64,000 bases of DNA. Source: a bacterium. Its GTDB lineage: Bacteria > Patescibacteriota > Minisyncoccia > UBA6257 > JAGOQP01. Location of the stretch: NCBI GenBank assembly GCA_021814695.1, contig JAKAHY010000002.1:8920-72919 (forward strand). Direction: 5' to 3'. Position numbers and translations under genes: made by a program. Positions within the stretch are counted from its first letter, which is position 1, and each line of letters starts with the position of its first letter. The notes under the pieces were generated by a model. The model did no database searches. It was not told where the DNA came from and saw nothing but the letters and a program-made list of their open reading frames with translations. Below are positions 1,905 to 52,479 of the stretch, piece after piece.

Positions 1905-1930
1905 CCTCGTTGGAGGCGGTTGGGAAGCGC

Positions 1931-2152
1931 TTAGCCGCGCTTCGCTTTGGAGGATGCCGAGACCTTGTGAGTCCCGGCGACGGCCACGCCGCGGTTGGCG
2001 GTGGCCAGGTCGGCCTGAGTCCTCCGCTTGGCCGCCCGGTTCGCGTGCTTGACGCTGTGACGGTCCTTGGGCGCGGTCTTGCCGCAGCGCCCGTTGGGGT
2101 GGCGGTTGCCGCCACCCGAAACCCGACAGTGACACAGTTCGCACACGGCCAT
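1931..2152 (-). CDS. Small (73 aa) highly basic Cys/His-containing protein encoded with strongly GC-rich codons; weak N-terminal resemblance to ribosomal protein bL28 (MxVCxxC...GGNRH), otherwise unknown
   Basis: ATG with strong SD GGGAGGTG 4 nt upstream, its own sigma70-like promoter and a terminator. About 68% GC with GC3-rich codons (AAG, AAC, GAC, CAC) in a roughly 40% GC genome. Confidence 0.55.
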   Translation of the reverse strand: MAVCELCHCRVSGGGNRHPNGRCGKTAPKDRHSVKHANRAAKRRTQADLATANRGVAVAGTHKVSASSKAKRG

Positions 2153-2231: not shown

Positions 2232-2266
2232 AACAAAATCACCCGCAAGGGGTGATCTTATTTTTG
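2232..2266. terminator. Bidirectional terminator (downstream of the GIY-YIG gene)
   Basis: ATCACCC-gcaa-GGGTGAT with T-runs on both sides. Confidence 0.55.
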
Positions 2267-2290
2267 TGGAGATGGGAGAGTTGGCTCCGA

Positions 2291-2530
2291 CTAAACTAAA
2301 TGCTTGTTTCTAAAAGCTATTCCCGAACCACTTTTCAGATATTTTTCAAAGTTGATCGCCTGTTCCTTGTTATGAAAAGTGCAGTGCCAAGCAATAATAA
2401 ATGGCGCTCTACTTGAGCTATATTTGGAACCATAACTATTATGTTCCAATAGTCTTTTCTTAATATCAATTGTGATGCCCGTATAGAAACTCCCATCTTT
2501 TAAACTGCGAAGAATATAGACAAAATACAT
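2291..2530 (-). CDS. GIY-YIG nuclease-domain protein (small stand-alone UPF0213/YhbQ-like)
   Basis: 79 aa; the YFVYILRSLKDGSFYTGITIDIKKRLLEHN motif matches the GIY-YIG core. Confidence 0.85.
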   Translation of the reverse strand: MYFVYILRSLKDGSFYTGITIDIKKRLLEHNSYGSKYSSSRAPFIIAWHCTFHNKEQAINFEKYLKSGSGIAFRNKHLV

Positions 2531-2597
2531 ATTATCTATAATTATATGGCCCTCCTTCGCATAAAGCTACGGAGGACTCACTACTCGCACCATAAAA

Positions 2598-2626
2598 CTC
2601 CCCAGATGGGGAGTTTTATTGCAATG
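2598..2626 (-). terminator. Terminator downstream of tmRNA
   Basis: AAAACTCCCCA-tc-TGGGGAGTTTT, perfect 11 bp stem followed by TAT. Confidence 0.5.
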
Positions 2627-2672
2627 CTTCTTGTGCAAGGAGTGCTTGCACTACGAAGCCTTGGCGAAGTAG

Positions 2673-3498: not shown

Positions 3499-5643
3499 AT
3501 GAAAAAATCTTCATTAATCGTGGTCATTTTGCTTGTTGTGGCAAGCGTAGGAATGACCGTCATCTTTTCAAATCAAGTGTCGATAAAGGGATTTCTATCG
3601 AGCGTTTATTCTACTGCATCAGGCAGAAATCATATACAGCTGGCAAACGCTCAGTCCTTGGGACAGGGGGTTGTAGTTTTTAAAGCGCAATTTGGCCATT
3701 TGGAAGCAACCGGCCAAGTTGTCTCCGGTATTTCCGGACTAGCGGGGCTGCCGGTGACAAAATTTGTTCCCGACAGAGACCTTTCGGATTCTGAAAAAAA
3801 GCAGGTTGAAGTAAACATCACCGAAGAGAACACCGTTTTCGGATTTATTGTGGCAAAAAACGTTTCATTAGGGCAGGGAATCGGTTTTAACATTCCCCAA
3901 GGAGAAGTTTATAACTACGGTTTTTATGTGAATTCCGACATCCTTCCTCAAGGATGGACATATAACTCTTCTTGCGTAGAGACGGGAGGAAATATTAAAT
4001 TATCTGCCGGCCAACAAAGCGAATGCACGATAGGTTTTTATCTGAAACCAACGCCTGCGCCGGTTACTCCTCCCGCTTCGACGTCCACTCCCGTCTCACC
4101 TCAGGAAGGAGCGTCAGGTACCGTTATTAGTGAAGATTCCGGTTCTGGATCGCTGCAGTTTGTAAAAAATATTTTGGACTTAAGTACGGGGTGGAAAAAC
4201 CCCGGATCGGATAAAATATTGGACGCAAAAATCGTTGAATTATACGGAAAGAAATTTCTTATTGTTTCGACTCAAAACAAACATTTGCTTGTTTACGATG
4301 CTTCAAACCAGTTTTCGCCGGTTCTTTTGAAAGATAATGATTTATCAGGCAGTAACGTGTCGGCGTTTTATCTTGTGGTTTTAGATAATTTCAATTACGT
4401 ATTTGCCTGGGGAGGAAACTCTGCCAACTACGGATCTTTTAAGATTGAACAAGACGGATCTGCGTCTCTGGTAAAAAGTTACAAACCTGACCAATATAGC
4501 GTTACTCAACCGAATTTGGTTTTCGGGTTGTTTAGAGGGTTAGACGGTAAAGCGTATGGATTTGGAGGGAACGGGGGCGATGGATGGCTAACTATTTATG
4601 ACGTGTCCGATCCGGCAAACATCAGCGAAATTGGATCATATCAAGATGGCTTAGTCGGGAATCACTGCGGCAATTATGGTCTGATTGGATTGGACAGGCC
4701 GCTTCAATGGAATACTTCTCAACAAGGGAACAAGCTTTATCTGGTAACTCATGCGGACCAGTGCGTCCAGCGGCTGCATACTTCCGGAGACGCCAGAATT
4801 TATATTTTTGACGTTTCTGATCCAAAAAATCCGCAGCTTTCCCATCAATATGAGCTTTCCGGTTCTTTTAACCACATACCTTCGGACGCGACTAAGGCCG
4901 AACAGACATTTCTTTTTGGCGGGATCGCCGACATTGCCGTTGATTCAAATTCGGGTAAGGTTTTTGATTTTTACAGGACGGTTTTTGATTGGCAGGGGCC
5001 ATCCTGGTCTCAGATAGCAAACATAGTGCATGGTACTTTGTTTAGATACAGAACCGGACTGGTCACTCTTTCACTGCAATCGGACGGTTCTCTAAAAGAA
5101 TTGTCGCGGGCTTTATTGTGCGAACAAAAGGGCCCAATGTATGATGGTGGCGGTCCGCAATATTATCGATGCGGCGACGTGGATGGAAACGACAAAAATA
5201 CCCAAGGCGGATATGATTATTCGGCAAGAAATTCTCAACAAAATTACAACGGAGTTTTTCTCCTCAGTGGGCCGGGAAATAGCGGTCAGGTGGGCTTACT
5301 AAGGAGTGATAATAGTTTTGTTGTCATTCCCGATACCGCCGGAGAGATGACTAAATTTAAGACGGCTATTAAAGATTCATCTTATTATTCGAATATCTAT
5401 AATCCCGCTATCAATGGTGTTGTGACCCAGGTTGACAGTAAAACATTTGCCATCTATCAATTTGATAGTTATTCGTTAAGCGTCGTTAAGGTTTTGTTGT
5501 CGCAATCTCTTGTGGGGGGATCGAAAAATCCCTCTCCTCCAGTGACCGGAGTTGCGCCTTCGGCAAACGTACCACTAACATCACCCGCATTTTCATTTAA
5601 TGCGCTCCTGAACATCTTCAGAAGGATACTTAACAACTACTAA
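3499..5643 (+). CDS. Secreted/surface LVIVD-repeat (beta-propeller) protein, paralog 1
   Basis: N-terminal signal/TM segment; repeated (Y/I)xDVSDPxNP LVIVD-like motifs; Pro/Ser/Thr linker; conserved C-terminal tail AFSFNALLNIFRRILNNY. Confidence 0.7.
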   Translation: MKKSSLIVVILLVVASVGMTVIFSNQVSIKGFLSSVYSTASGRNHIQLANAQSLGQGVVVFKAQFGHLEATGQVVSGISGLAGLPVTKFVPDRDLSDSEKKQVEVNITEENTVFGFIVAKNVSLGQGIGFNIPQGEVYNYGFYVNSDILPQGWTYNSSCVETGGNIKLSAGQQSECTIGFYLKPTPAPVTPPASTSTPVSPQEGASGTVISEDSGSGSLQFVKNILDLSTGWKNPGSDKILDAKIVELYGKKFLIVSTQNKHLLVYDASNQFSPVLLKDNDLSGSNVSAFYLVVLDNFNYVFAWGGNSANYGSFKIEQDGSASLVKSYKPDQYSVTQPNLVFGLFRGLDGKAYGFGGNGGDGWLTIYDVSDPANISEIGSYQDGLVGNHCGNYGLIGLDRPLQWNTSQQGNKLYLVTHADQCVQRLHTSGDARIYIFDVSDPKNPQLSHQYELSGSFNHIPSDATKAEQTFLFGGIADIAVDSNSGKVFDFYRTVFDWQGPSWSQIANIVHGTLFRYRTGLVTLSLQSDGSLKELSRALLCEQKGPMYDGGGPQYYRCGDVDGNDKNTQGGYDYSARNSQQNYNGVFLLSGPGNSGQVGLLRSDNSFVVIPDTAGEMTKFKTAIKDSSYYSNIYNPAINGVVTQVDSKTFAIYQFDSYSLSVVKVLLSQSLVGGSKNPSPPVTGVAPSANVPLTSPAFSFNALLNIFRRILNNY

Positions 5644-8396: not shown

Positions 8397-10580
8397 ATGA
8401 AAAAATATTCATTAATTGTGATTATCTTACTTGTTGTTGCAAGTATAGGGATTACCGCTATCTTTTCAAGTCAAGTGTCGATAACCGGATTTCTTTTGAG
8501 CGTTTACTCAACTGTTTCGGGGAGCAATCAAATACAGAGAGTAAATGCACAAACGACAGGCCAAGGAACCATATTATTCCAAGGCCAATTCGGTCATCTT
8601 GAATCGACCGGAAAGGTCACTACCGGAATTTCGGGCTTATCCGGACTTCCGGTGATGAAATTTGTTAAAGACCGTGACCTATCTAGCGATGAAAAAAATC
8701 AGATTAGAGTGGATGTTATTGAACATAACACTCCTTTTGAATTTGTAGTTGCAAAAAATATTTCGCTTGGAGAGGGTGTTAATTTTAATATTCCCGTAGG
8801 TTCGACATATAGATATAGTTTTTATGTTCACCCCGACTCGATTCCCTCCGGATGGGTTTATTATTCCGGTTGTTTAGAGACCGATGGGAATGTTTCGGTA
8901 CTGGCCGGTCAGCAAAGTACTTGCAGCATAGGATTTTATTTAAAGCCCGAAACAATCTCACCCCCTCCGGTCACATCAACATCTACGATCACGTCTACTC
9001 CTTCGGTAGGTGTTTCGGGAACTGTTGTCGGTGAAGATGCCAGCGCAGGATCGTTGCAGTTTGTAAAAAACGTTTTGGATTTAAGCTCACAAAGAAAGGG
9101 CATTATTTATGGAGTTTTGGACGCAAGAACCGTTAATTTGTATGGAAAAAATCTTCTGATAGTTGCTAGAGGTGGAGCTTACTCTGCTACCACTCCAACC
9201 TGGCATATGCTTGTTTATGATATAACCGATCCGCTTGCCCCGGTTCTTTTGAAGGATAATGATATGTCCGGAAGTGGCATAATCTATAGTTCTCCAATGA
9301 CCGGTTTGGCAGTGCTTGATGGCTTTAATTATGTATTTGTCCGTGGAAATGTCGGTTACGGTTCGTTTAAAATTAATCAGGACGGAACTGCGTCTCTTGT
9401 GAAAAGCTATAAATATTCTGAAGTTCAGCAGATACAGACAGATTTAATCAGGGGATTGTTCAACGGTCTGGATGGAAATATATACGGCTACGGAGGGTTT
9501 GTGCAGGATGGAGGACTCGTGCTTTATAACGTTTCCGATCCCGCTAATATTATTCAAGTTGGAACGTATACTAATGGTCTTGAACCAGCGATTGCCATCT
9601 ATGGACAAATTGGATTGAATCGCCAGAGCACTTGGGGCGTTGTTAAAGAAGGAGGCAAACTTTATCTTATTGCTCATGCGGACCAGTTGGTTCTGCGCCT
9701 TCATACGGATTATGATGGAATGATTTATGTTTTTGATGTGTCCAATCCGGCAAGTCCGCAGCTTTCACATATCTATAAAATGTCCAGCTCCTTTAATCAC
9801 CTTCCTTCCGATATGACTTCGTATGAGAAGATGTTTCTTTACGGAGGAGAAGCTAATATATCGGTTGATCCAATATCAAATAGAGTATTTGATTTTTACA
9901 GAACGGTTTTTGATTGGCAGGGACCCAATCAGCTTAAGATAAAAGACATTCCTAAAGGAGCCTTGTTTCGTTATAGAAATGGAATAGCCGTTCTTTCAAT
10001 AGGAATCGATGGTTCTTTGAAATCAAGTTCCAGTAACATATTATTGTGCGAAAGAATAGCCATTCAAGATAATGGGACGTCAGGCGAAGATAAATGTGAT
10101 ACAAAGAGTCCCGAAACGGTTGGGGGATATTATAGTTCCAGTCTTTATGGAAACAGGAATCCTCAAGAAAATTATAACGGAGTATTTCTTCTTGGCGACG
10201 TGAATAATGTCGGACATGTAGGGCTGTTAAAAAGCGATGGTAGTTTTGTTATCATACCCGATCCAACCGGAGAAATGCTTAAATTCAAATCTGTCTTGGC
10301 TGACCCGTCGTATTATTCCGATCCTGGTTTTCGTTCGTCTCCAATCAATGGCATTGTCACTCAAGTTGATAGCAAAACCTTTGCAATATTTCAGATTGAT
10401 AATTATTCCATAAGTGTTACAAAGCTAAATCTATCACAATCCATAACGAGCGTAACACAAAAATCTTCGCCACCTACCACAAATGCCCCTAGTTCATTAA
10501 ATACATCATCTCCTACTCAGACTCCATTTTCCTTCAGCTCGCTCCTGAGAATATTTCAGAGGGTGTTCAATAGTCAGTAA
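8397..10580 (+). CDS. Secreted LVIVD-repeat protein, paralog 3 (close duplicate of paralog 1)
   Basis: The N-terminal 100 aa are nearly identical to the 3499 protein; tail PFSFSSLLRIFQRVFNSQ. Confidence 0.7.
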   Translation: MKKYSLIVIILLVVASIGITAIFSSQVSITGFLLSVYSTVSGSNQIQRVNAQTTGQGTILFQGQFGHLESTGKVTTGISGLSGLPVMKFVKDRDLSSDEKNQIRVDVIEHNTPFEFVVAKNISLGEGVNFNIPVGSTYRYSFYVHPDSIPSGWVYYSGCLETDGNVSVLAGQQSTCSIGFYLKPETISPPPVTSTSTITSTPSVGVSGTVVGEDASAGSLQFVKNVLDLSSQRKGIIYGVLDARTVNLYGKNLLIVARGGAYSATTPTWHMLVYDITDPLAPVLLKDNDMSGSGIIYSSPMTGLAVLDGFNYVFVRGNVGYGSFKINQDGTASLVKSYKYSEVQQIQTDLIRGLFNGLDGNIYGYGGFVQDGGLVLYNVSDPANIIQVGTYTNGLEPAIAIYGQIGLNRQSTWGVVKEGGKLYLIAHADQLVLRLHTDYDGMIYVFDVSNPASPQLSHIYKMSSSFNHLPSDMTSYEKMFLYGGEANISVDPISNRVFDFYRTVFDWQGPNQLKIKDIPKGALFRYRNGIAVLSIGIDGSLKSSSSNILLCERIAIQDNGTSGEDKCDTKSPETVGGYYSSSLYGNRNPQENYNGVFLLGDVNNVGHVGLLKSDGSFVIIPDPTGEMLKFKSVLADPSYYSDPGFRSSPINGIVTQVDSKTFAIFQIDNYSISVTKLNLSQSITSVTQKSSPPTTNAPSSLNTSSPTQTPFSFSSLLRIFQRVFNSQ

Positions 10581-30299: not shown

Positions 30300-30340
30300 C
30301 AAAAACAAAAATTACCCAAACGGGTAATTTTTGTTTTGGG

Positions 30341-30466
30341 TGTTGACGGGGTAGGATGCGGGGTGGTCGAGGGGCTGCAAGCCCCTCGTGTTGGAAATTA
30401 TTCAAAACCGAGGGTTTTGAAGGAGCGAATATAATGAGCGACGTCCGATTTCCCGTTACCCGCTCA
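30341..30466 (+). repeat. tRNA-trailer mini-element copy E1 (ends with a duplicate of the tRNA-Gly(GCC) 3' end)
   Basis: Contains hairpin CGAGGGGC-tgcaa-GCCCCTCG, then tgttggaaatt, then aaaccgagggtttt, ending in tcccgttacccgctca. Confidence 0.6.
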
Positions 30467-30502: not shown

Positions 30503-30650
30503 TGTCCGCCCGGAAGGGAGTCTCACGTCGCTCCGACATTGCGTCGGAGCTCCCAAGACACCCTCGGTTTCTTGACGCTCCTCCGGAGCTTTTTCCTACA
30601 CGGGAGATTAAGCATCTCCCGACCCCTCTCTATTCAATTCCTTGTTGACG
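30503..30650 (-). repeat. tRNA-trailer mini-element copy E2 (minus orientation; ends with a tRNA-Lys 3' end duplicate)
   Basis: Minus strand: aattgaatagagaggggtcgg, hairpin GGAGATGCTTAATCTCC, cgtgtaggaaaaag, cgtcaagaaaccgagggtgtcttggg, then gtgagactCCCTTCCGGGCGGACA. Confidence 0.6.
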
Positions 30651-30689
30651 AACAAAACAAAAAATATTCACAAAGGATATTTCTTATTT

Positions 30690-30826
30690 TGTCCGCCCGG
30701 AAGGGAATCTCACGTCGCTCCGACCTTGCGTCGGAGCTCCTTAAAACCATTCGGTTTTAATATTTCCTCCACGGAAAACCTTCGGTTTCCCGACCCCATC
30801 CGATTTGATTCCTTTACTGACGAATA
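30690..30826 (-). repeat. tRNA-trailer mini-element copy E3 (minus orientation; ends with a tRNA-Lys 3' end duplicate)
   Basis: Minus strand: ggaatcaaatcggatggggtcgg, hairpin GGAAACCgaaGGTTTTCC, gtggaggaaatat, hairpin TAAAACCgaatGGTTTTA, then gtgagattCCCTTCCGGGCGGACA. Confidence 0.6.
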
Positions 30827-30865
30827 TAAAACAAAAAGCACCACAAGGGTGTTTTTTGTTTTCTG

Positions 30866-35438: not shown

Positions 35439-35509
35439 GTATACCGGTAGTACGTGCGCTTCGGGTGCGTAAAGACCGGGTTCGATTCCCGGCAGCCCGA
35501 CTAAAATAG
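35439..35509 (+). tRNA. tRNA-Pro(CGG)
   Basis: CGGGCTG acceptor, anticodon loop TTCGGGT (G37), T-arm CCGGGTTCGATTCCCGG. Preceded by a TTGTAT-17-TAGTAT promoter. Confidence 0.85.
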
Positions 35510-35544
35510 AAATCCCATTCGGGATTTTTATTTTTGCTTGGACT

Positions 35545-35681
35545 CCGGAAATTGAATCAGAAGGGGTCGGGGAACCTGTGGTTCCCCGTGTAGGAAAAAG
35601 TCCGCCCTGGGCGGACGTCAAGAAACCGAGGGTGTTTTGGGAGGAGTGAAACGACGACGTGAGATTCCCGGCAGCCCGACG
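35545..35681 (+). repeat. tRNA-trailer mini-element copy E4 (ends with a tRNA-Pro 3' end duplicate; followed by a second terminator and a 5' fragment of another copy at 35730-35748)
   Basis: ggaaattgaatcagaaggggtcgg, hairpin GGAACCtgtGGTTCC, cgtgtaggaaaaag, hairpin GTCCGCCctgGGCGGAC, cgtcaagaaaccgagggtgttttggg, ending gtgagATTCCCGGCAGCCCGAC. Confidence 0.6.
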
Positions 35682-47125: not shown

Positions 47126-47791
47126 TTGATTCAAATACGGCTGCGGAAAAGGACGGACATACACATGTCCGAAGAAGCTATCCGCATCAGCAACACCGCA
47201 GGGATTTTTCTGGTTATTCTTCCATCTTCAGGCGAGACGGAAGTGAAGACGGTATTGGTATTGGGAAAGTCTGAATTGGTAGAGCAGAGCAACGGCACTG
47301 TTTTTTCCAAGCCGCGCATGTGGGGATTGCCCAAGGGAAGGATGAAGTCCGATACGGATGAAGACGTTGTCACAACCGCCCTCCGAGAGTTTCAGGAGGA
47401 AACCGGAATCACCGAGATTTCCAAGGGTATGATCAATTGGGAGTTGTCCGTAACGGAGAAGGAATGTTCACTCCGTCCGGGCTCAGACGAACATCACAAG
47501 ACGTTTTTCCTGGTGGTTATGAAGAAAACGCCCAAGATCGGAATTCCTGTCGATCCCAAGATTGAGAAAGCCCAGATTTTTTCCATCAGCGAACTTCCCA
47601 TCACGGGCGGAACAAAGTTGGCCAAAAGTCATGCTCGGGCCATGAGCGCACTTCTGGAAAAGTGCCGGCCACAGCTTTTGGCAGAAGGCGTCCATCCCAT
47701 GGTTTTGGCTATGTGCGAGGTAGGCCTGTCCCACAAGCCGGGAGAAAATAAACCCGATGACGAAAAGAACAATTTCCGCAATCAGCGGTAA
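47126..47791 (+). CDS. NUDIX hydrolase (GC-richer than its surroundings)
   Basis: Nudix box GLPKGRMKSDTDEDVVTTALREFQEETGI. The start may be the ATG at 47164. A TTGACA-17-TATAAA promoter lies at 47089-47117. Confidence 0.75.
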   Translation: MIQIRLRKRTDIHMSEEAIRISNTAGIFLVILPSSGETEVKTVLVLGKSELVEQSNGTVFSKPRMWGLPKGRMKSDTDEDVVTTALREFQEETGITEISKGMINWELSVTEKECSLRPGSDEHHKTFFLVVMKKTPKIGIPVDPKIEKAQIFSISELPITGGTKLAKSHARAMSALLEKCRPQLLAEGVHPMVLAMCEVGLSHKPGENKPDDEKNNFRNQR

Positions 47792-47839
47792 CTCCGAGCA
47801 TGTCTCGGAGATTTTTTTAATCAAAAAATAATATTTGAA

Positions 47840-47960
47840 AATATCCCGACAAGTGAGGGGATTTTGTATAGTCCTTCTTCGCATAAAGCTTCGAAGGACA
47901 CTTTTCGTCTGGCTTGCACTTCGTAGCTCGCCAGGGCGAAGAAGTGAGCGGGTAAGGGGA
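47840..47960. repeat. Perfect about 121 bp direct repeat, copy 1 (duplicate of the tRNA-Gly(TCC) 3' end plus about 105 nt of trailer)
   Basis: Identical to 48069-48188. Confidence 0.8.
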
Positions 47961-48068
47961 AGTCTTACGCTCACCCCCGACCCCCGCTTAAGAAACCTTC
48001 GGGTTTCTTACGTCCCTATTTTCCAACACGGGGGTTCGCATTCGACTCCCAAACTCACCCACAAAAAA
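47961..48068 (-). repeat. tRNA-trailer mini-element copy E5 (rearranged family member) sitting between the two 121 bp direct repeats
   Basis: Minus strand carries gtgttggaaaatagg, hairpin GACGTAAGAAACC-cgaa-GGTTTCTTAAGC and gggggtcggggg modules. Confidence 0.5.
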
Positions 48069-48188
48069 ATATCCCGACAAGTGAGGGGATTTTGTATAGT
48101 CCTTCTTCGCATAAAGCTTCGAAGGACACTTTTCGTCTGGCTTGCACTTCGTAGCTCGCCAGGGCGAAGAAGTGAGCGGGTAAGGGGA
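48069..48188. repeat. Perfect about 121 bp direct repeat, copy 2 (overlaps the true tRNA-Gly(TCC) 3' end and trailer)
   Basis: Identical to 47840-47960. Confidence 0.8.
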
Positions 48189-48245
48189 GTCGGACCCCTC
48201 TCATCAGCTTGGAAAGCTGAGGTAATACCGATATACGATACCCGC
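48175..48245 (-). tRNA. tRNA-Gly(TCC)
   Basis: Minus strand: GCGGGTATCGTATATCGGTATTACC TCAGC TTTCCAA GCTGA TGAG AGGGG TCCGACT CCCCT TACCCGC T. Same unusual T-loop as tRNA-Gly(GCC). Confidence 0.7.
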
Positions 48246-48307: not shown

Positions 48308-48922
48308 ATGTTTTTGGACAGGTTCGATAGATTGCCTAAAAAAATTAGAAGGACCGCATGGGTTGTTATCGGATTGGTGGTTTTGATGTTGATTGCATAT
48401 TTGGCGTGGAGTTACTTCGGTTCCCATGTGCCGGGAGATTTCAACGAGGCCAGGATAGCGGCGTCCGTGGAAGCTAAAACGATTGCCGATACCCTGAAAG
48501 ATTCTCCTGAGAATCTTCAAAAAATACAACAACTTCAGGAAAAGTGGAAAGACGATCAGGCGCTGACACTTTTGGTTGCGGAGTTCCAAAAAAACCAGGC
48601 AGCCAGAGATGCATCGGTTAAACTTGCGGGAGAACTGGAAAGAATGGCTCAGGCCATTCCCGACATTCGTCCCAAAAAATCCGCCGAAAATGCTTTAGTT
48701 GCAATAACTACCGAAACTCAGTTGATTTATAAACTGGTCTCGTTTAATGATGATATGAGTCAGTTGCTTAAGTTGATGCAGGATAAAATTACGAATAAAA
48801 TCTACGGGGTGGATAAAGTAAATCAATTAGTGGATGCCATTAATTCCGAAGTCGATTCGATAAATCAGCTCAATAATCAGTTTGAAGATTATCTGAAAAC
48901 GTTTGACGGGTCGTTTAATTAA
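48308..48922 (+). CDS. Hypothetical membrane-anchored coiled-coil protein
   Basis: N-terminal TM segment; Q/E/K-rich. Confidence 0.4.
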   Translation: MFLDRFDRLPKKIRRTAWVVIGLVVLMLIAYLAWSYFGSHVPGDFNEARIAASVEAKTIADTLKDSPENLQKIQQLQEKWKDDQALTLLVAEFQKNQAARDASVKLAGELERMAQAIPDIRPKKSAENALVAITTETQLIYKLVSFNDDMSQLLKLMQDKITNKIYGVDKVNQLVDAINSEVDSINQLNNQFEDYLKTFDGSFN

Positions 48923-48941: not shown

Positions 48942-49014
48942 GGGCCGTTAGCTTAGTTGGTAGAGCGCCTCGTTTGCAACGAGGAGGTCACCGGTTCGAA
49001 TCCGGTACGGTCCA
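48942..49014 (+). tRNA. tRNA-Ala(TGC)
   Basis: GGGCCGTTAGCTTAGTTGGTAGAGC... anticodon loop TTTGCAA, G3:U70, T-loop TTCGAAT. Confidence 0.9.
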
Positions 49015-49060
49015 CATAACAAAAAAATTGCCTAGCGCAATTTTTTTGTTATGATGAATC

Positions 49061-49184
49061 AGGGTCGGTTTGAATATTTAGGGGTCGGGGTATTTGTAAA
49101 TACCCCGAGTAAGAAAATTTGAGAAACCGTGGGTTTCTCACGAACGAATGAAATGAGTGAGGTGAGATTCCGGTACGGTCCACA
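49061..49184 (+). repeat. tRNA-trailer mini-element copy E6 (ends with a tRNA-Ala(TGC) 3' end duplicate)
   Basis: tttgaatatttaggggtcgg, hairpin GGTATTtgtaAATACC, cgagtaagaaaatt, hairpin TGAGAAACCgtgGGTTTCTCA, ...ggtgagaTTCCGGTACGGTCCACA. Confidence 0.6.
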
Positions 49185-49188
49185 AAAT

Positions 49189-49500
49189 ATGAAAAAATCA
49201 GAATATCTTTTGAGAAGTTTTATAAATGCGGCTGGAGTATTTGTTTATGTAGCATTGATTGCCTGGCTGGGTTTTAACAGCAAAACAATTTTTGGAGAAG
49301 CTCCAAGTTTTATTGCGCCATTGTTTATGCTTCTTTTGTTTGTCGTGTCGGCTTGTATAACGGGCCTATTGGTCTTGGGTAAGCCAATTCTTATGTATTT
49401 GAACAATCAGAGAAGAGAGGCCATTGTTTTATTTTCGGTTACTCTTAGCTGGCTCGTATTGTTTTTGGCGATTATCGCGACTGCTCTTGCCTTAAGATAA
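49189..49500 (+). CDS. Small hypothetical membrane protein (3 TM segments)
   Basis: ATG immediately after element E6. The track ORF from 49129 would read through the repeat and is unlikely. Confidence 0.4.
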   Translation: MKKSEYLLRSFINAAGVFVYVALIAWLGFNSKTIFGEAPSFIAPLFMLLLFVVSACITGLLVLGKPILMYLNNQRREAIVLFSVTLSWLVLFLAIIATALALR

Positions 49501-49569: not shown

Positions 49570-50097
49570 GTGAGCGTGCGCGCTCTTTCCCATCCGATAT
49601 CCGTTTTTGTTTGCGGTTTTGAGGAACTGGACGAACAGGAGCAGGCGTTACTGCTTGTAGCGGCGGATGCTATGACTAAGGCTCAAGCGCCGTATTCGCA
49701 TTATCTGGTTGGTGCTGCCGTGTTGGATGGTGACGGCCACATAACTGCCGGATGTAACGTTGAGCGGTGTACGTATACGCAGACGACGCATGCGGAACAG
49801 GCGGCCGTGGATGCGATGGTTGTTCATGGCAAATCCAGAAAAATTCAAGCGGTTGCGGTTGTCGGGGGACCGGATGGCACGATCAATGGACCCATTGAGA
49901 GATTTCCCAAAGGAGAAGTTGTTGCTTCTTTTGATGAAATTCCGGCGCCATCTTGCGGGCATTGCCTTCAGATTATCTGGGAGAATTGCCGGGGCGATAA
50001 CAAGGTTAAGTTGTATTCCTGGGCCGATGGCTGGGTTTACATCACGACCATTGGTGATGCGCTTCCGATGAAGTTCGGGCCCAATGATTTGTTGTAA
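49570..50097 (+). CDS. Cytidine/deoxycytidylate deaminase-fold zinc deaminase (CDA-like), GC-rich
   Basis: APYSHYLVGAAVLDGDGHITAGCNVE, HAEQAAV and PSCGHCLQ motifs; GTG start near 49570-49576 with SD AAGAGGTG; about 56% GC. Confidence 0.7.
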   Translation: MSVRALSHPISVFVCGFEELDEQEQALLLVAADAMTKAQAPYSHYLVGAAVLDGDGHITAGCNVERCTYTQTTHAEQAAVDAMVVHGKSRKIQAVAVVGGPDGTINGPIERFPKGEVVASFDEIPAPSCGHCLQIIWENCRGDNKVKLYSWADGWVYITTIGDALPMKFGPNDLL

Positions 50098-50171
50098 TTT
50101 GCGAGTGCTCTTGTTTGGAGCACTTTTTCTTTGACTGAATTTCGGGTATCGTGTATAAAAGTAACATTACT

Positions 50172-50258
50172 GGAGGGGTGTGTGAGTGGTTGAAACAAAC
50201 GGTCTTGAAAACCGTTATGCCCGCAAGGGCATCGCGAGTTCGAATCTCGCCCCCTCCG
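50172..50258 (+). tRNA. tRNA-Ser(TGA)
   Basis: Long variable arm; anticodon loop CTTGAAA; preceded by a TTGACT-17-TATAAA promoter. Confidence 0.85.
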
Positions 50259-50342
50259 CTTTGTGCGGAAAATAAAATATCACCATTTTTTTGACAGTTG
50301 TATTTTATATGATATCTTTTTGTCAGTACTAAAAAACATGGA

Positions 50343-50960
50343 GTGACCGTGCCTGACAACTGCGTGTTTTGCGATCGGGTGAAGGTTGAAGAAAGAATCG
50401 TCGGAGAGACTGCCGATTTCTTTATTGTTGCAACTATTGGCCAGATCAGTGACGGGGGATATCTTCTTTTGATCCCCAAGCGTCATGTGGCATGCATTGC
50501 CGCAATGAGTGAACCGGAAATTCGTCTTGCTTATTACGCGATTCAAGAAGTGCGCACGGCAGTTTCATGGGAATATTCATTCGCGCCAGTGACGATTTTT
50601 GAACATGGGATTGTCGGACAAACGGTAGAGCATGCGCACATTCATTTTGTTCCTGCTGCGTGCGACATTACCGCCAGAGTTAGAAAGGATTTTCCGGATT
50701 GCAGAATCATCTCTCCGATAACGCTGGAGGAAATCCGACATTCTTATTTGATTGATCCTCGTCCGTATTTGATGTGGCGGGACCAGAATTTTAACATCAG
50801 TGTTTGCTGGAATCCTCCTGCTCCGCCAATGTACTTTAGGATTGTTGTCGCCGAAGCGCTTGGGCGTCCCGAAAGAGCCAACTGGCGCACGATGGACAGG
50901 GAAGTCGATAATCGTCTGGTCTCTGAAACTATTGCCCATTTGAAGCCGTATTTTTCATAA
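50343..50960 (+). CDS. HIT-superfamily (histidine triad) nucleotide hydrolase/transferase-like protein
   Basis: CVFCD N-terminus and HAHIHFVP HxHxHxx motif; GTG start. Confidence 0.65.
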   Translation: MTVPDNCVFCDRVKVEERIVGETADFFIVATIGQISDGGYLLLIPKRHVACIAAMSEPEIRLAYYAIQEVRTAVSWEYSFAPVTIFEHGIVGQTVEHAHIHFVPAACDITARVRKDFPDCRIISPITLEEIRHSYLIDPRPYLMWRDQNFNISVCWNPPAPPMYFRIVVAEALGRPERANWRTMDREVDNRLVSETIAHLKPYFS

Positions 50961-51099
50961 GCCCGCATATTTGGGGCTTTTATTTTAGAGCCATAATATT
51001 TGACAAAAATATAAATATGTATTATCTTATAAATATCTTTAGTGAGAATCCTGCACATAGTAGCAATAAAAGGTTCTTACCCGAGGATTTTTTATTTCT

Positions 51100-52479
51100 A
51101 TGAACAACAGATTCGGCAACAAAAGGCCCGTTCACGGGCACAGTAATCACGCAGGCTCGTCTCATTCTTCCAGCTCATATCCGCAGCATAATGCCGGCGG
51201 CAGTTCGAGGCGGAGAAATTTCGGTCGTGGCCGCGGCGCATCGTCAAAAAGCCAAAGGATCAATGAAACGCGATTTATAAACAAATCAAGCGTTGTAAAC
51301 TCGACTCTTGCTTATGAACCCAAAAATTCTTTTGCCGATTTTGAAATCGACGGCCGCTTAAAAGAAAATATTGCCAAAAAAGGATTTACAAAACCGACTT
51401 CAATCCAGGACAAAACCATCCCGGAGATTTTATCCGGCAAGGATGTTGCGGGACTGGCAGATACCGGCACCGGAAAAACCGCAGCTTTTCTTATTCCATT
51501 AATAAATAAAATACTTAAAGATAAAAACCAGAGAATATTGATTTTGGCTCCGACAAGAGAGTTGGCGTTACAGATAAATGCCGAGTCAATGGATTTTTGC
51601 AGAGGGTTGGGAATTTATTCAGTTGAGGCTGTGGGAGGCGAAAGCATCCGCGAACAAATATACCAGATAAGGAGGGGATTCAACCTGCTTATAGGCACTC
51701 CCGGAAGACTTCGGGATTTGGCCGACCGCAAAGCGGTGAACTTGGGAATTTTTCAAAACGTTGTATTGGATGAAGCCGATAGAATGTTGGATATGGGATT
51801 TTTGCCGGATGTTAAATTTTTACTCGGCTTATTGAGAAAGGAGCGGCAAACCGTATTTTTCTCGGCGACATTTTCTCAGGAGATTAGCGACCTGACCAAA
51901 CAATTTTCTCAAAATCCGATAAAGATAGAAACCAAGATCAGAGATACCTCATCCGATGTTGACCAGGATATAGTACGTGTCGGGCTTTCTGATAATAAAA
52001 TAGAGATATTGGAAGAATTATTGAACAAGAAAGAATTTCAAAAAGTTCTGATCTTCGGAAAAACAAAAGTCGGCGTTCAGCACGTGGCCGATGAATTGAA
52101 AAAACATGGATTTGCTGCAGAGGCTATTCATGGAGATAAGTATCAGGCCAGTAGAGAAAAAACCCTCCGCGCCTTCAAGCAGGGGAGATTTAACATTCTT
52201 GTAGCAACCGATGTGGCCGCCAGAGGACTGGATATTCCCGATGTCACTCATGTAATAAACTATGACATTCCATCGACATATGAAGATTATATTCATCGTA
52301 TCGGTAGAACTGGGCGTGCGGGTAAGAAAGGAATGGCGCTCACTTTTATCGGCGGGAAAGAGCATCGTCACGATCTAAGGGCTCAAGGGGGAAATAAAAA
52401 GTTTTTCGGATCAAGTCACGGGCATCCGGGAAGGCGGCCGTTTTCCAAAAGAGGCCGCAGAGATAGAAGGGGAAGATAG
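51100..52479 (+). CDS. DEAD-box ATP-dependent RNA helicase with RG-rich N- and C-terminal tails
   Basis: Q motif, DTGTGKTAAF, DEAD, SAT and HRIGRTGRAG motifs. Confidence 0.9.
   Translation: MNNRFGNKRPVHGHSNHAGSSHSSSSYPQHNAGGSSRRRNFGRGRGASSKSQRINETRFINKSSVVNSTLAYEPKNSFADFEIDGRLKENIAKKGFTKPTSIQDKTIPEILSGKDVAGLADTGTGKTAAFLIPLINKILKDKNQRILILAPTRELALQINAESMDFCRGLGIYSVEAVGGESIREQIYQIRRGFNLLIGTPGRLRDLADRKAVNLGIFQNVVLDEADRMLDMGFLPDVKFLLGLLRKERQTVFFSATFSQEISDLTKQFSQNPIKIETKIRDTSSDVDQDIVRVGLSDNKIEILEELLNKKEFQKVLIFGKTKVGVQHVADELKKHGFAAEAIHGDKYQASREKTLRAFKQGRFNILVATDVAARGLDIPDVTHVINYDIPSTYEDYIHRIGRTGRAGKKGMALTFIGGKEHRHDLRAQGGNKKFFGSSHGHPGRRPFSKRGRRDRRGR

Follow-up and report, generated by a model that had tools for sequence, protein, structure and literature searches.

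A cytidine deaminase gene and a HIT-family gene side by side in a tRNA cluster of a Patescibacteria genome

Bacteria of the Candidate Phyla Radiation (CPR, Patescibacteria) generally lack de novo nucleotide synthesis and rely on salvage. We analysed a deaminase gene and a histidine triad (HIT) gene that are neighbours in the genome of such a bacterium (GenBank assembly GCA_021814695.1, contig JAKAHY010000002.1, positions 8,920 to 72,919; this whole stretch of 64,000 nucleotides is the window, and positions are counted from its first letter). The closest described relatives of the deaminase are the homotetrameric cytidine deaminases of Bacillus subtilis (1JTK), human (1MQ0) and mouse (2FR5), with which it shares a single domain of the cytidine deaminase (CDA) fold, the catalytic Glu, the Cys residues of CGxC, and the Asn and Glu of GCNxE. 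The HIT protein has two kinds of relatives: Hint/Fhit-type proteins with a CxxC motif (3L7X, 1Y23, 3IMI), which are homodimers of 115-170 amino acids (aa), and the CwfJ module (CwfJ_C_1, PF04677, plus CwfJ_C_2, PF04676) of eukaryotic CWF19L1/Drn1, CWF19L2 and Cwf19. Intron turnover in yeast depends on conserved Cys, His, Arg and Trp residues in the CwfJ domains of Drn1, whose function requires C269, C272, H366, R459 and W474 (PMC4105757).

A sequence-only reading of the locus had proposed an acquired, GC-rich, tRNA-flanked island, in which the deaminase and the HIT protein form a functional pair for nucleotide salvage, nucleoside-antibiotic resistance or nucleotide-depleting anti-phage defence. 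Our results indicate that these are probably two unrelated, separately transcribed housekeeping genes, one for a salvage deaminase and one for a HIT enzyme, which are neighbours because both sit in a cluster of tRNA genes (Gly-tcc, Ala-tgc, Ser-tga).

Linkage and layout of the two genes

Deaminase neighbourhoods were compared at 40 loci, one genome per species, and a HIT homologue was sought within 6 kb. The results showed that no HIT gene was present at any of the 40 species loci, and that no deaminase gene stood beside the HIT gene at five distant CPR loci, where the neighbours were genes for ribosomal proteins, IMPDH, ribonucleotide reductase, MurB, SecA, gyrase and YceG. The adjacency was kept in one close relative (locus L046) and at none of the 45 distant loci, so the two genes are side by side only in this lineage and the proposed functional pair was not borne out. 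The commonest neighbour of the deaminase gene was a HAD-like hydrolase gene directly upstream (9 of 40 loci), which fits a nucleotide-to-nucleoside-to-uridine salvage route. Among the three functions that had been offered, nucleotide salvage is the best supported for the deaminase.

The features of the region are as follows.

47165-47791, plus strand: NUDIX gene (domain searches)
47946-48173, minus strand: 228-bp repeat element
48174-48245, minus strand: tRNA-Gly(tcc)
48308-48922, plus strand: membrane/coiled-coil protein, 204 aa
48942-49015, plus strand: tRNA-Ala(tgc) (ARAGORN; Rfam tRNA, 72.9 bits)
49016-49183, plus strand: 168-bp mini-element whose end copies the last ~17 nt of tRNA-Ala (direct repeat D18, shared architecture)
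49189-49500, plus strand: small membrane protein, ~103 aa from a putative ATG start at 49189 (open reading frame list)
49576-50097, plus strand: predicted cytidine deaminase, cdd-type, 173 aa, with motifs HAEQ, PSCGHC and GCNVER (Pfam, NCBIfam, alignment, AlphaFold2 model)
50103-50125, plus strand: terminator-like hairpin followed by a T-run, directly 3' of the deaminase stop codon (consensus scan, pattern match only)
50172-50259, plus strand: tRNA-Ser(tga) (ARAGORN, Rfam)
50291-50318, plus strand: promoter-like site TTGACA-16-TATCTT with TG extension, ~30 nt 5' of the HIT start (consensus scan, 10/12 matches, pattern only)
50349-50960, plus strand: two-domain HIT protein, 203 aa (Pfam HIT, alignment, AlphaFold2 model, Foldseek)
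51000-51028: promoter-like site of the DEAD-box helicase gene, TTGACA type (consensus scan, pattern match only)
51100-52479, plus strand: DEAD-box RNA helicase, CshA/RhlE-like, the right-hand neighbour (Pfam, NCBIfam)

This layout agrees with the earlier description, in which tRNA-Ser separates the two genes, tRNA-Ala and a mini-element lie to the left and the DEAD-box helicase gene to the right, and both genes start with GTG. The window sequence is identical to ENA contig ERZ27237554:k141_1937419 (244,778 bp), and both its genes and the names of their homologues mark the genome as that of a Patescibacteria/CPR bacterium. An Rfam scan of the window found nothing besides tRNAs and a tmRNA. The open reading frames (ORFs) extend over 49570-50097 and 50343-50960 and each offers an alternative GTG at its first position; the second GTG, at 49576 and 50349, is favoured in both by the spacing to GAGG/GGAG, by the gene calls of the source contig (173 and 203 aa) and by the N-termini of homologues. 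The small membrane-protein gene between the mini-element and the deaminase gene had been passed over in that description. Its frame is open from GTG 49129 within the mini-element (123 aa in the source-contig gene calls); the protein has no Pfam match, and a 70% identical homologue lies 5' of the deaminase gene in L046. The terminator-like hairpin after the deaminase gene and the separate promoter-like sites of the HIT and DEAD-box genes, which are pattern matches only, together with the neighbourhoods led us to reject an operon or functional pair and suggest separate transcription units.

Identity of the deaminase and of the HIT protein

The zinc-dependent, CDA-fold deaminase recognized from the sequence was confirmed by Pfam PF00383 (45.8 bits, cut-off 25) and NCBIfam PRK05578 'cytidine deaminase' (84.4 bits, cut-off 74), and PF08211 also matched. 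A word-indexed homologue search returned 778 proteins, nearly all of 170-190 aa, full length and 45-58% identical, from metagenome-assembled genomes of Patescibacteria and Babeliales/Dependentiae; homologues of both the deaminase and the HIT protein occur in Nealson-, Lipton-, Yanofsky-, Gottesman-bacteria and similar groups. In an alignment of 25 deaminase members, GCNVER, THAEQ, CGHC..Q..WEN and P..FGP are invariant. H72-A73-E74 aligns with the C/HAE of the B. subtilis cytidine deaminase, and G59-C-N61-V-E63-R aligns with GCNIEN of 1UX1/1JTK, whose Asn and Glu we take to be ribose contacts. An aromatic residue before VG is likewise invariant and aligned with the B. subtilis enzyme. The zinc motif had been given as PCGHC, which is the family consensus around the invariant C127-G-H-C130; the protein itself has an extra Ser after the preceding Pro (PSCGHC).

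Profile searches placed the deaminase with the cytidine deaminase type. The 25-member profile matched the solved homotetrameric cytidine deaminases in PDB at E = 8e-29, and its top match was 1UX1, a B. subtilis mutant (C53H/R56Q) that likewise carries HAEQ. The AlphaFold2 model had a mean predicted local distance difference test score (pLDDT) of 85.7, and the first 42 Foldseek ranks in PDB were all cytidine deaminases, with target template modelling scores (TM-scores) of 0.77-0.86. The homotetrameric enzymes are the best matches by both sequence and fold, at 26-34% identity. They differ from the window protein in their first zinc ligand, which is Cys, whereas the latter has His (HAEQ) as in the dimeric cytidine deaminase of E. 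coli and in 1UX1; the window protein also has a variable insert of ~25 aa between strand 3 and the CGHC helix, an N-terminal extension of ~20 aa and the PSCGHC motif. Blasticidin-S deaminases (1WN5, 2Z3G) share the CDA fold and the size class and are not the closest family: the profile reached them at E = 1.6e-3 with no significant stretch, and they appeared at Foldseek rank 43 and below with 17-20% identity. A blasticidin-S deaminase identity was therefore rejected. These results suggest that the protein is a cytidine/deoxycytidine deaminase whose His-Cys-Cys zinc site and catalytic Glu (HAE...CGHC) would turn (deoxy)cytidine into (deoxy)uridine in pyrimidine salvage, and that a distinct subfamily of cytidine deaminases, marked by its insert and by His as a zinc ligand, is carried by CPR bacteria.

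The second protein was confirmed as a HIT protein by its HAHIHFV motif and by PF01230 (31.7 bits, cut-off 21.5). The first 105 aa are a HIT domain of the zinc type, in which CxxC, H46 and the H95-x-H97-x-H99 triad are present; CxxC, a conserved His and the HxHxHxx triad are also what it shares with the Hint/Fhit types. In the family alignment C5, C8, H46, C49, H95, H97, H99, R164 and W179 are invariant, as is the whole stretch H95-A-H97-I-H99-F-V. The sequence-only reading had left open whether the protein is Hint-, GalT- or Fhit-like. For the N-terminal half a Hint/Fhit-like placement held: the family profile matched Hint-like proteins in PDB at E = 7e-12, and classical HIT proteins superposed on this half with a root-mean-square deviation of 1.5-2.5 Å. 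They covered only this half, with a query TM-score of ~0.4, whereas the best full-length fold matches were of the CWF19 type. In the predicted model (pLDDT 93.6), the five best whole-protein Foldseek matches were chains of CWF19L1, CWF19L2 and S. pombe Cwf19, with query TM-scores of 0.63-0.70 and E = 3e-8 to 3e-5 over 207-245 columns.

The C-terminal ~100 aa, which the Hint/Fhit types do not have, are as conserved as the N-terminal half (PYLxW, CWNPPAP, YLRIVVAEALGRPERANWR.MD). When a profile of the C-terminal halves was searched against PDB and Pfam, no credible match came up, in Pfam even at E <= 10; these halves gave no match to CwfJ_C_2, and no CWF19 chain was among the matches when the HIT profiles were searched against PDB. 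CwfJ_C_1 matched 13 of 25 family members at E <= 1 (best E = 6.6e-8); the window protein scored 13.8 bits against a cut-off of 21, and distant members scored up to 40.9 bits. The invariant CxxC, His and later Arg and Trp of the CPR family recall the Drn1 residues, a likeness of pattern and not of an alignment of the two. The CPR protein differs from the CWF19 proteins in being free-standing, without an N-terminal Dbr1-like, zinc-finger or RNA recognition motif region, and it keeps the complete HxHxH catalytic triad.

A word-indexed search gave 288 HIT homologues, nearly all full length and 45-58% identical, and the profile reached 1379 cluster representatives at E <= 1e-10; the family is large, uncharacterised and prokaryotic. 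Distant members are fused to a radical-SAM, SAM-methyltransferase, NUDIX or second canonical HIT domain (the NUDIX fusion is P0333, of 332 aa; the others are P0383, P0320 and P0319/P0321), and these fusions may hint at the substrate class. A search of the viral structure library gave no match at E <= 0.001, and literature searches for CwfJ with histidine triad, CWF19L1 with HIT and Patescibacteria with cytidine deaminase found nothing useful. Going by the HIT superfamily, the enzyme would hydrolyse or transfer a nucleoside monophosphate (NMP) from a nucleotide conjugate through a covalent His-NMP intermediate at H97 of HAHIH, and the C-terminal domain would complete, within one chain, a fold resembling the C-terminal CWF19/Drn1 module of eukaryotes. 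Bacteria have no spliceosome. One speculative and rather unlikely idea is that this family corresponds to the CwfJ module in a free-standing form with intact catalysis, and that its substrate is a nucleotide adduct linked to RNA, such as a 5'-adenylylated, capped or branched end, and not a free dinucleotide; the family would then point to a bacterial origin of the eukaryotic module.

Gene order, base composition and rival explanations

The gene order was compared with close relatives, whose contigs are short (L046 1.4 kb, L047 3.0 kb, L055 3.9 kb). In L046, where the deaminase is 86% identical, the order membrane protein, deaminase, tRNA-Ser and HIT is kept. In L047 (helicase 92% and HIT protein 66% identical) the HIT and helicase genes are kept with a different gene upstream. 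L053 and L054 keep NUDIX, tRNA-Gly, membrane protein and tRNA-Ala, and after tRNA-Ser carry genes for UDP-glucose dehydrogenase and DUF1003 before the pilM block. The NUDIX gene is in place in L053 and L055 with no deaminase or HIT gene nearby. The cluster of tRNA genes is ancestral, and shuffling has affected the protein genes that surround it; the cluster is a rearrangement-prone site in this clade, struck by small elements that target tRNA 3' ends.

Some further observations concern the cluster itself. Compared with L053, tRNA-Gly(tcc) is 96% and tRNA-Ser(tga) 98% identical, and tRNA-Ala(tgc) only 73% (48942-49015 versus L053 4660-4732). The tRNA-Ser(tga) of L046 (1061-1148) is only 70% identical to the window copy, while the flanking protein genes have 75% DNA identity. 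Besides its own entry, the NUDIX protein has four homologues, all at least 73% identical and from a narrow clade.

Both genes are richer in GC than the window (41.4%), as had been noticed; the HIT gene has 47.9% and the deaminase gene 52.3%, lower than the ~56% first given for it. Codon-position GC was expressed as z-scores relative to the 58 ORFs of the window. At codon positions 1+2 the deaminase gene had z = 2.3 and the HIT gene z = 1.4. The third-position values (mean of the 58 ORFs 0.411 +/- 0.058) were as follows.

Deaminase: 0.528, z = 2.0
HIT: 0.471, z = 1.0
NUDIX: 0.604, z = 3.5, the most deviant in the window

Among relatives, the deaminase gene exceeded its own locus in GC in 38 of 38 cases, by 4.9 points on average and 12.1 at most (10.8 in the window). 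The family-wide excess was confined to codon positions 1+2 (+4.4 points, against -0.6 points at position 3), and thus reflects amino-acid composition. Third-position GC was 0.497 for the deaminase gene in L046, 0.488 for the HIT gene in L047, and 0.57 and 0.56 for the NUDIX gene in L053 and L055, so it is moderately raised in this clade, and an excess kept in relatives ~25% different at the DNA level is old and stable and not a recent foreign signature.

Within 43.5-57 kb, Pfam searches found no integrase or transposase domain, and the 3' end of tRNA-Ser occurs only once in the window. The pattern ATCCGGTACGGTCCACA from the end of tRNA-Ala is present twice, at 49000-49016 and in a copy with one mismatch at 49168-49184, and this repeat brackets 168 bp only, so that att-like repeats around the two genes were rejected. 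The region resembles integrase-mediated tRNA-linked islands in its site in a tRNA cluster, in the tRNA 3'-end duplications nearby and in gene content that varies among relatives; it is unlike them in that it has no integrase, in that its repeats surround elements of 165-228 bp only, and in that its contents are conserved housekeeping families. The idea of a tRNA-flanked integration site stands for the tRNA cluster, with its mini-elements and their tRNA 3'-end duplications and the indel relative to L053, and is not supported for the deaminase and HIT genes. With no integrase, no direct repeat around either gene and a deaminase GC content that is high throughout its family, the acquired GC-rich island was not upheld.

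Several observations weigh against the view that these are ordinary housekeeping genes brought together by the tRNA cluster. In L053 and L054, tRNA-Ser lies 33 bp after tRNA-Ala, so neither gene has a conserved position, and an old insertion is possible. The raised third-position GC of the deaminase gene is unlike most of its relatives. An old acquired islet would account for both: the membrane-protein and deaminase genes, perhaps with HIT-DEAD and the rest of the block, would have been inserted at a tRNA-Ala/tRNA-Ser hot spot from a GC-richer CPR lineage before the split from L046. The differing genes between tRNA-Ser and pilM, the other gene upstream of HIT-DEAD in L047, the low identity of tRNA-Ala and the third-position z-scores of the two genes are consistent with such an event, and the tRNA 3'-end duplications are real insertion events at neighbouring tRNAs. 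However, the repeats do not enclose the genes and no mobility gene is present, the raised third-position GC looks like a stable gene property, and the close homologues are all from CPR bacteria, with none from another lineage above 58% identity. A deletion or relocation in the L053 lineage accounts for the indel equally well, and we consider the islet unlikely.

The remaining points concern function. The deaminase scored 81.8 on NCBIfam TIGR01354, under the trusted cut-off of 113.65 (and 72 on PRK12411, cut-off 216), and its insert and N-terminal extension, missing from solved cytidine deaminases, could mean a different substrate preference. On that account the enzyme might act on something other than a free nucleoside, for example nucleic acid or a modified cytidine, its active site being reshaped by the extension and by the insert (pLDDT 76-80, of lower confidence in the model); yeast CDD1, described in the Foldseek list as an orphan editase, was also among the matches. 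However, conservation within the family is lowest in the insert, the aromatic residue and the residues for ribose contact, catalysis and zinc binding are invariant and line up with those of the B. subtilis enzyme, and the recurrent hydrolase neighbour fits nucleotide-to-nucleoside salvage, which makes a substrate other than a free nucleoside very improbable. A module of deaminase and HIT protein, possibly with the upstream NUDIX protein, in anti-phage defence or nucleoside-antibiotic resistance appears just as improbable. Three nucleotide-handling enzymes do lie within 3.8 kb, and one distant HIT member is fused to NUDIX. For defence, PADLOC returned no match for the deaminase or the NUDIX protein and, for the HIT protein, a weak match to ThsC (27 bits) by the generic HIT domain, without Thoeris partners, and a defence system was rejected. 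For resistance, blasticidin-S deaminase was ~26 orders of magnitude weaker than cytidine deaminase by profile E-value, and weaker also by fold. The absence of co-localisation at the distant loci, the NUDIX gene that stays in place without the other two, and the separate promoter-like and terminator-like signals also speak against a module, and two separate housekeeping genes remain the preferred reading.

Mini-elements at tRNA genes and meaning of the locus

Six mini-elements of 165-228 bp lie directly after five of the eight tRNA genes of the window (Gly-gcc, Lys-ctt with two in tandem, Pro-cgg, Gly-tcc and Ala-tgc).

30301-30465, plus strand: mini-element
30691-30864, minus strand: mini-element
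30504-30690, minus strand: mini-element
35502-35680, plus strand: mini-element
47946-48173, minus strand: mini-element (the 228-bp repeat element above)
49016-49183, plus strand: mini-element (the 168-bp element above)

In every element the final bases repeat the 3'-terminal 16-17 nt of its own tRNA, and none of the six matched an Rfam family. Five of the six share an architecture of a terminator-like hairpin, GGGGTCGGG..CCGTGTAGGAAA, a AAGAAACCGAGGGTTTCTT hairpin, and CGACGTGAGAYTCC plus a tRNA-specific tail. The exception is the Gly-tcc element, whose 5' part differs and is shared with a tmRNA-linked element; it is flanked by perfect 123-nt direct repeats at a spacing of 228 bp (47838-48188). 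One 228-bp unit is missing at L002 1421-1602 (assembly ERZ27237587), which is otherwise 99.9% identical; the difference reflects a recent indel or else an assembly collapse. Downstream of the tmRNA (2672-2988) is a segment of ~405 bp (~2266-2671, minus strand). It codes for a GIY-YIG nuclease of 79 aa (PF01541, E = 5.4e-14), and at its end the tmRNA 3' end recurs in nearly the same form (CAACTCTCCCATCTCCAC). This segment may be an autonomous relative of the mini-elements, and the mini-element family looks more interesting than the deaminase and HIT genes.

Just beyond the tmRNA-linked element lies a small basic ORF of 73 aa (~1930-2150, minus strand; 1789-2115 in the ORF listing), with ~61% GC in a genome of 41% GC, its own TTGACA-type promoter-like site and a terminator hairpin, and no Pfam match. 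Two paralogous genes of ~715-727 aa, at 3499-5643 and 8397-10580, are 4.9 kb apart; their blocks have 70-76% DNA identity, their promoter/leader regions are near-identical (GATGTGATATAATGAAACAAAT), and these repeats fall in the direct-repeat families D1, D8, D9, D12, D14 and D16.

For the two genes themselves the significance is small: a candidate defence or resistance island is removed, and the case shows that high GC and flanking tRNAs can go with an ordinary gene. The insert-bearing CPR cytidine deaminase subfamily with a His ligand fits the dependence of these bacteria on nucleoside salvage, a dependence that a preprint (10.64898/2026.07.13.738296) also describes, together with the general lack of de novo nucleotide synthesis. 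The CWF19-like architecture of the HIT protein is the only part with some novelty. To find out what the C-terminal module of eukaryotic CWF19/Drn1 does biochemically, a small bacterial homologue that retains its catalytic triad could serve as a convenient model.

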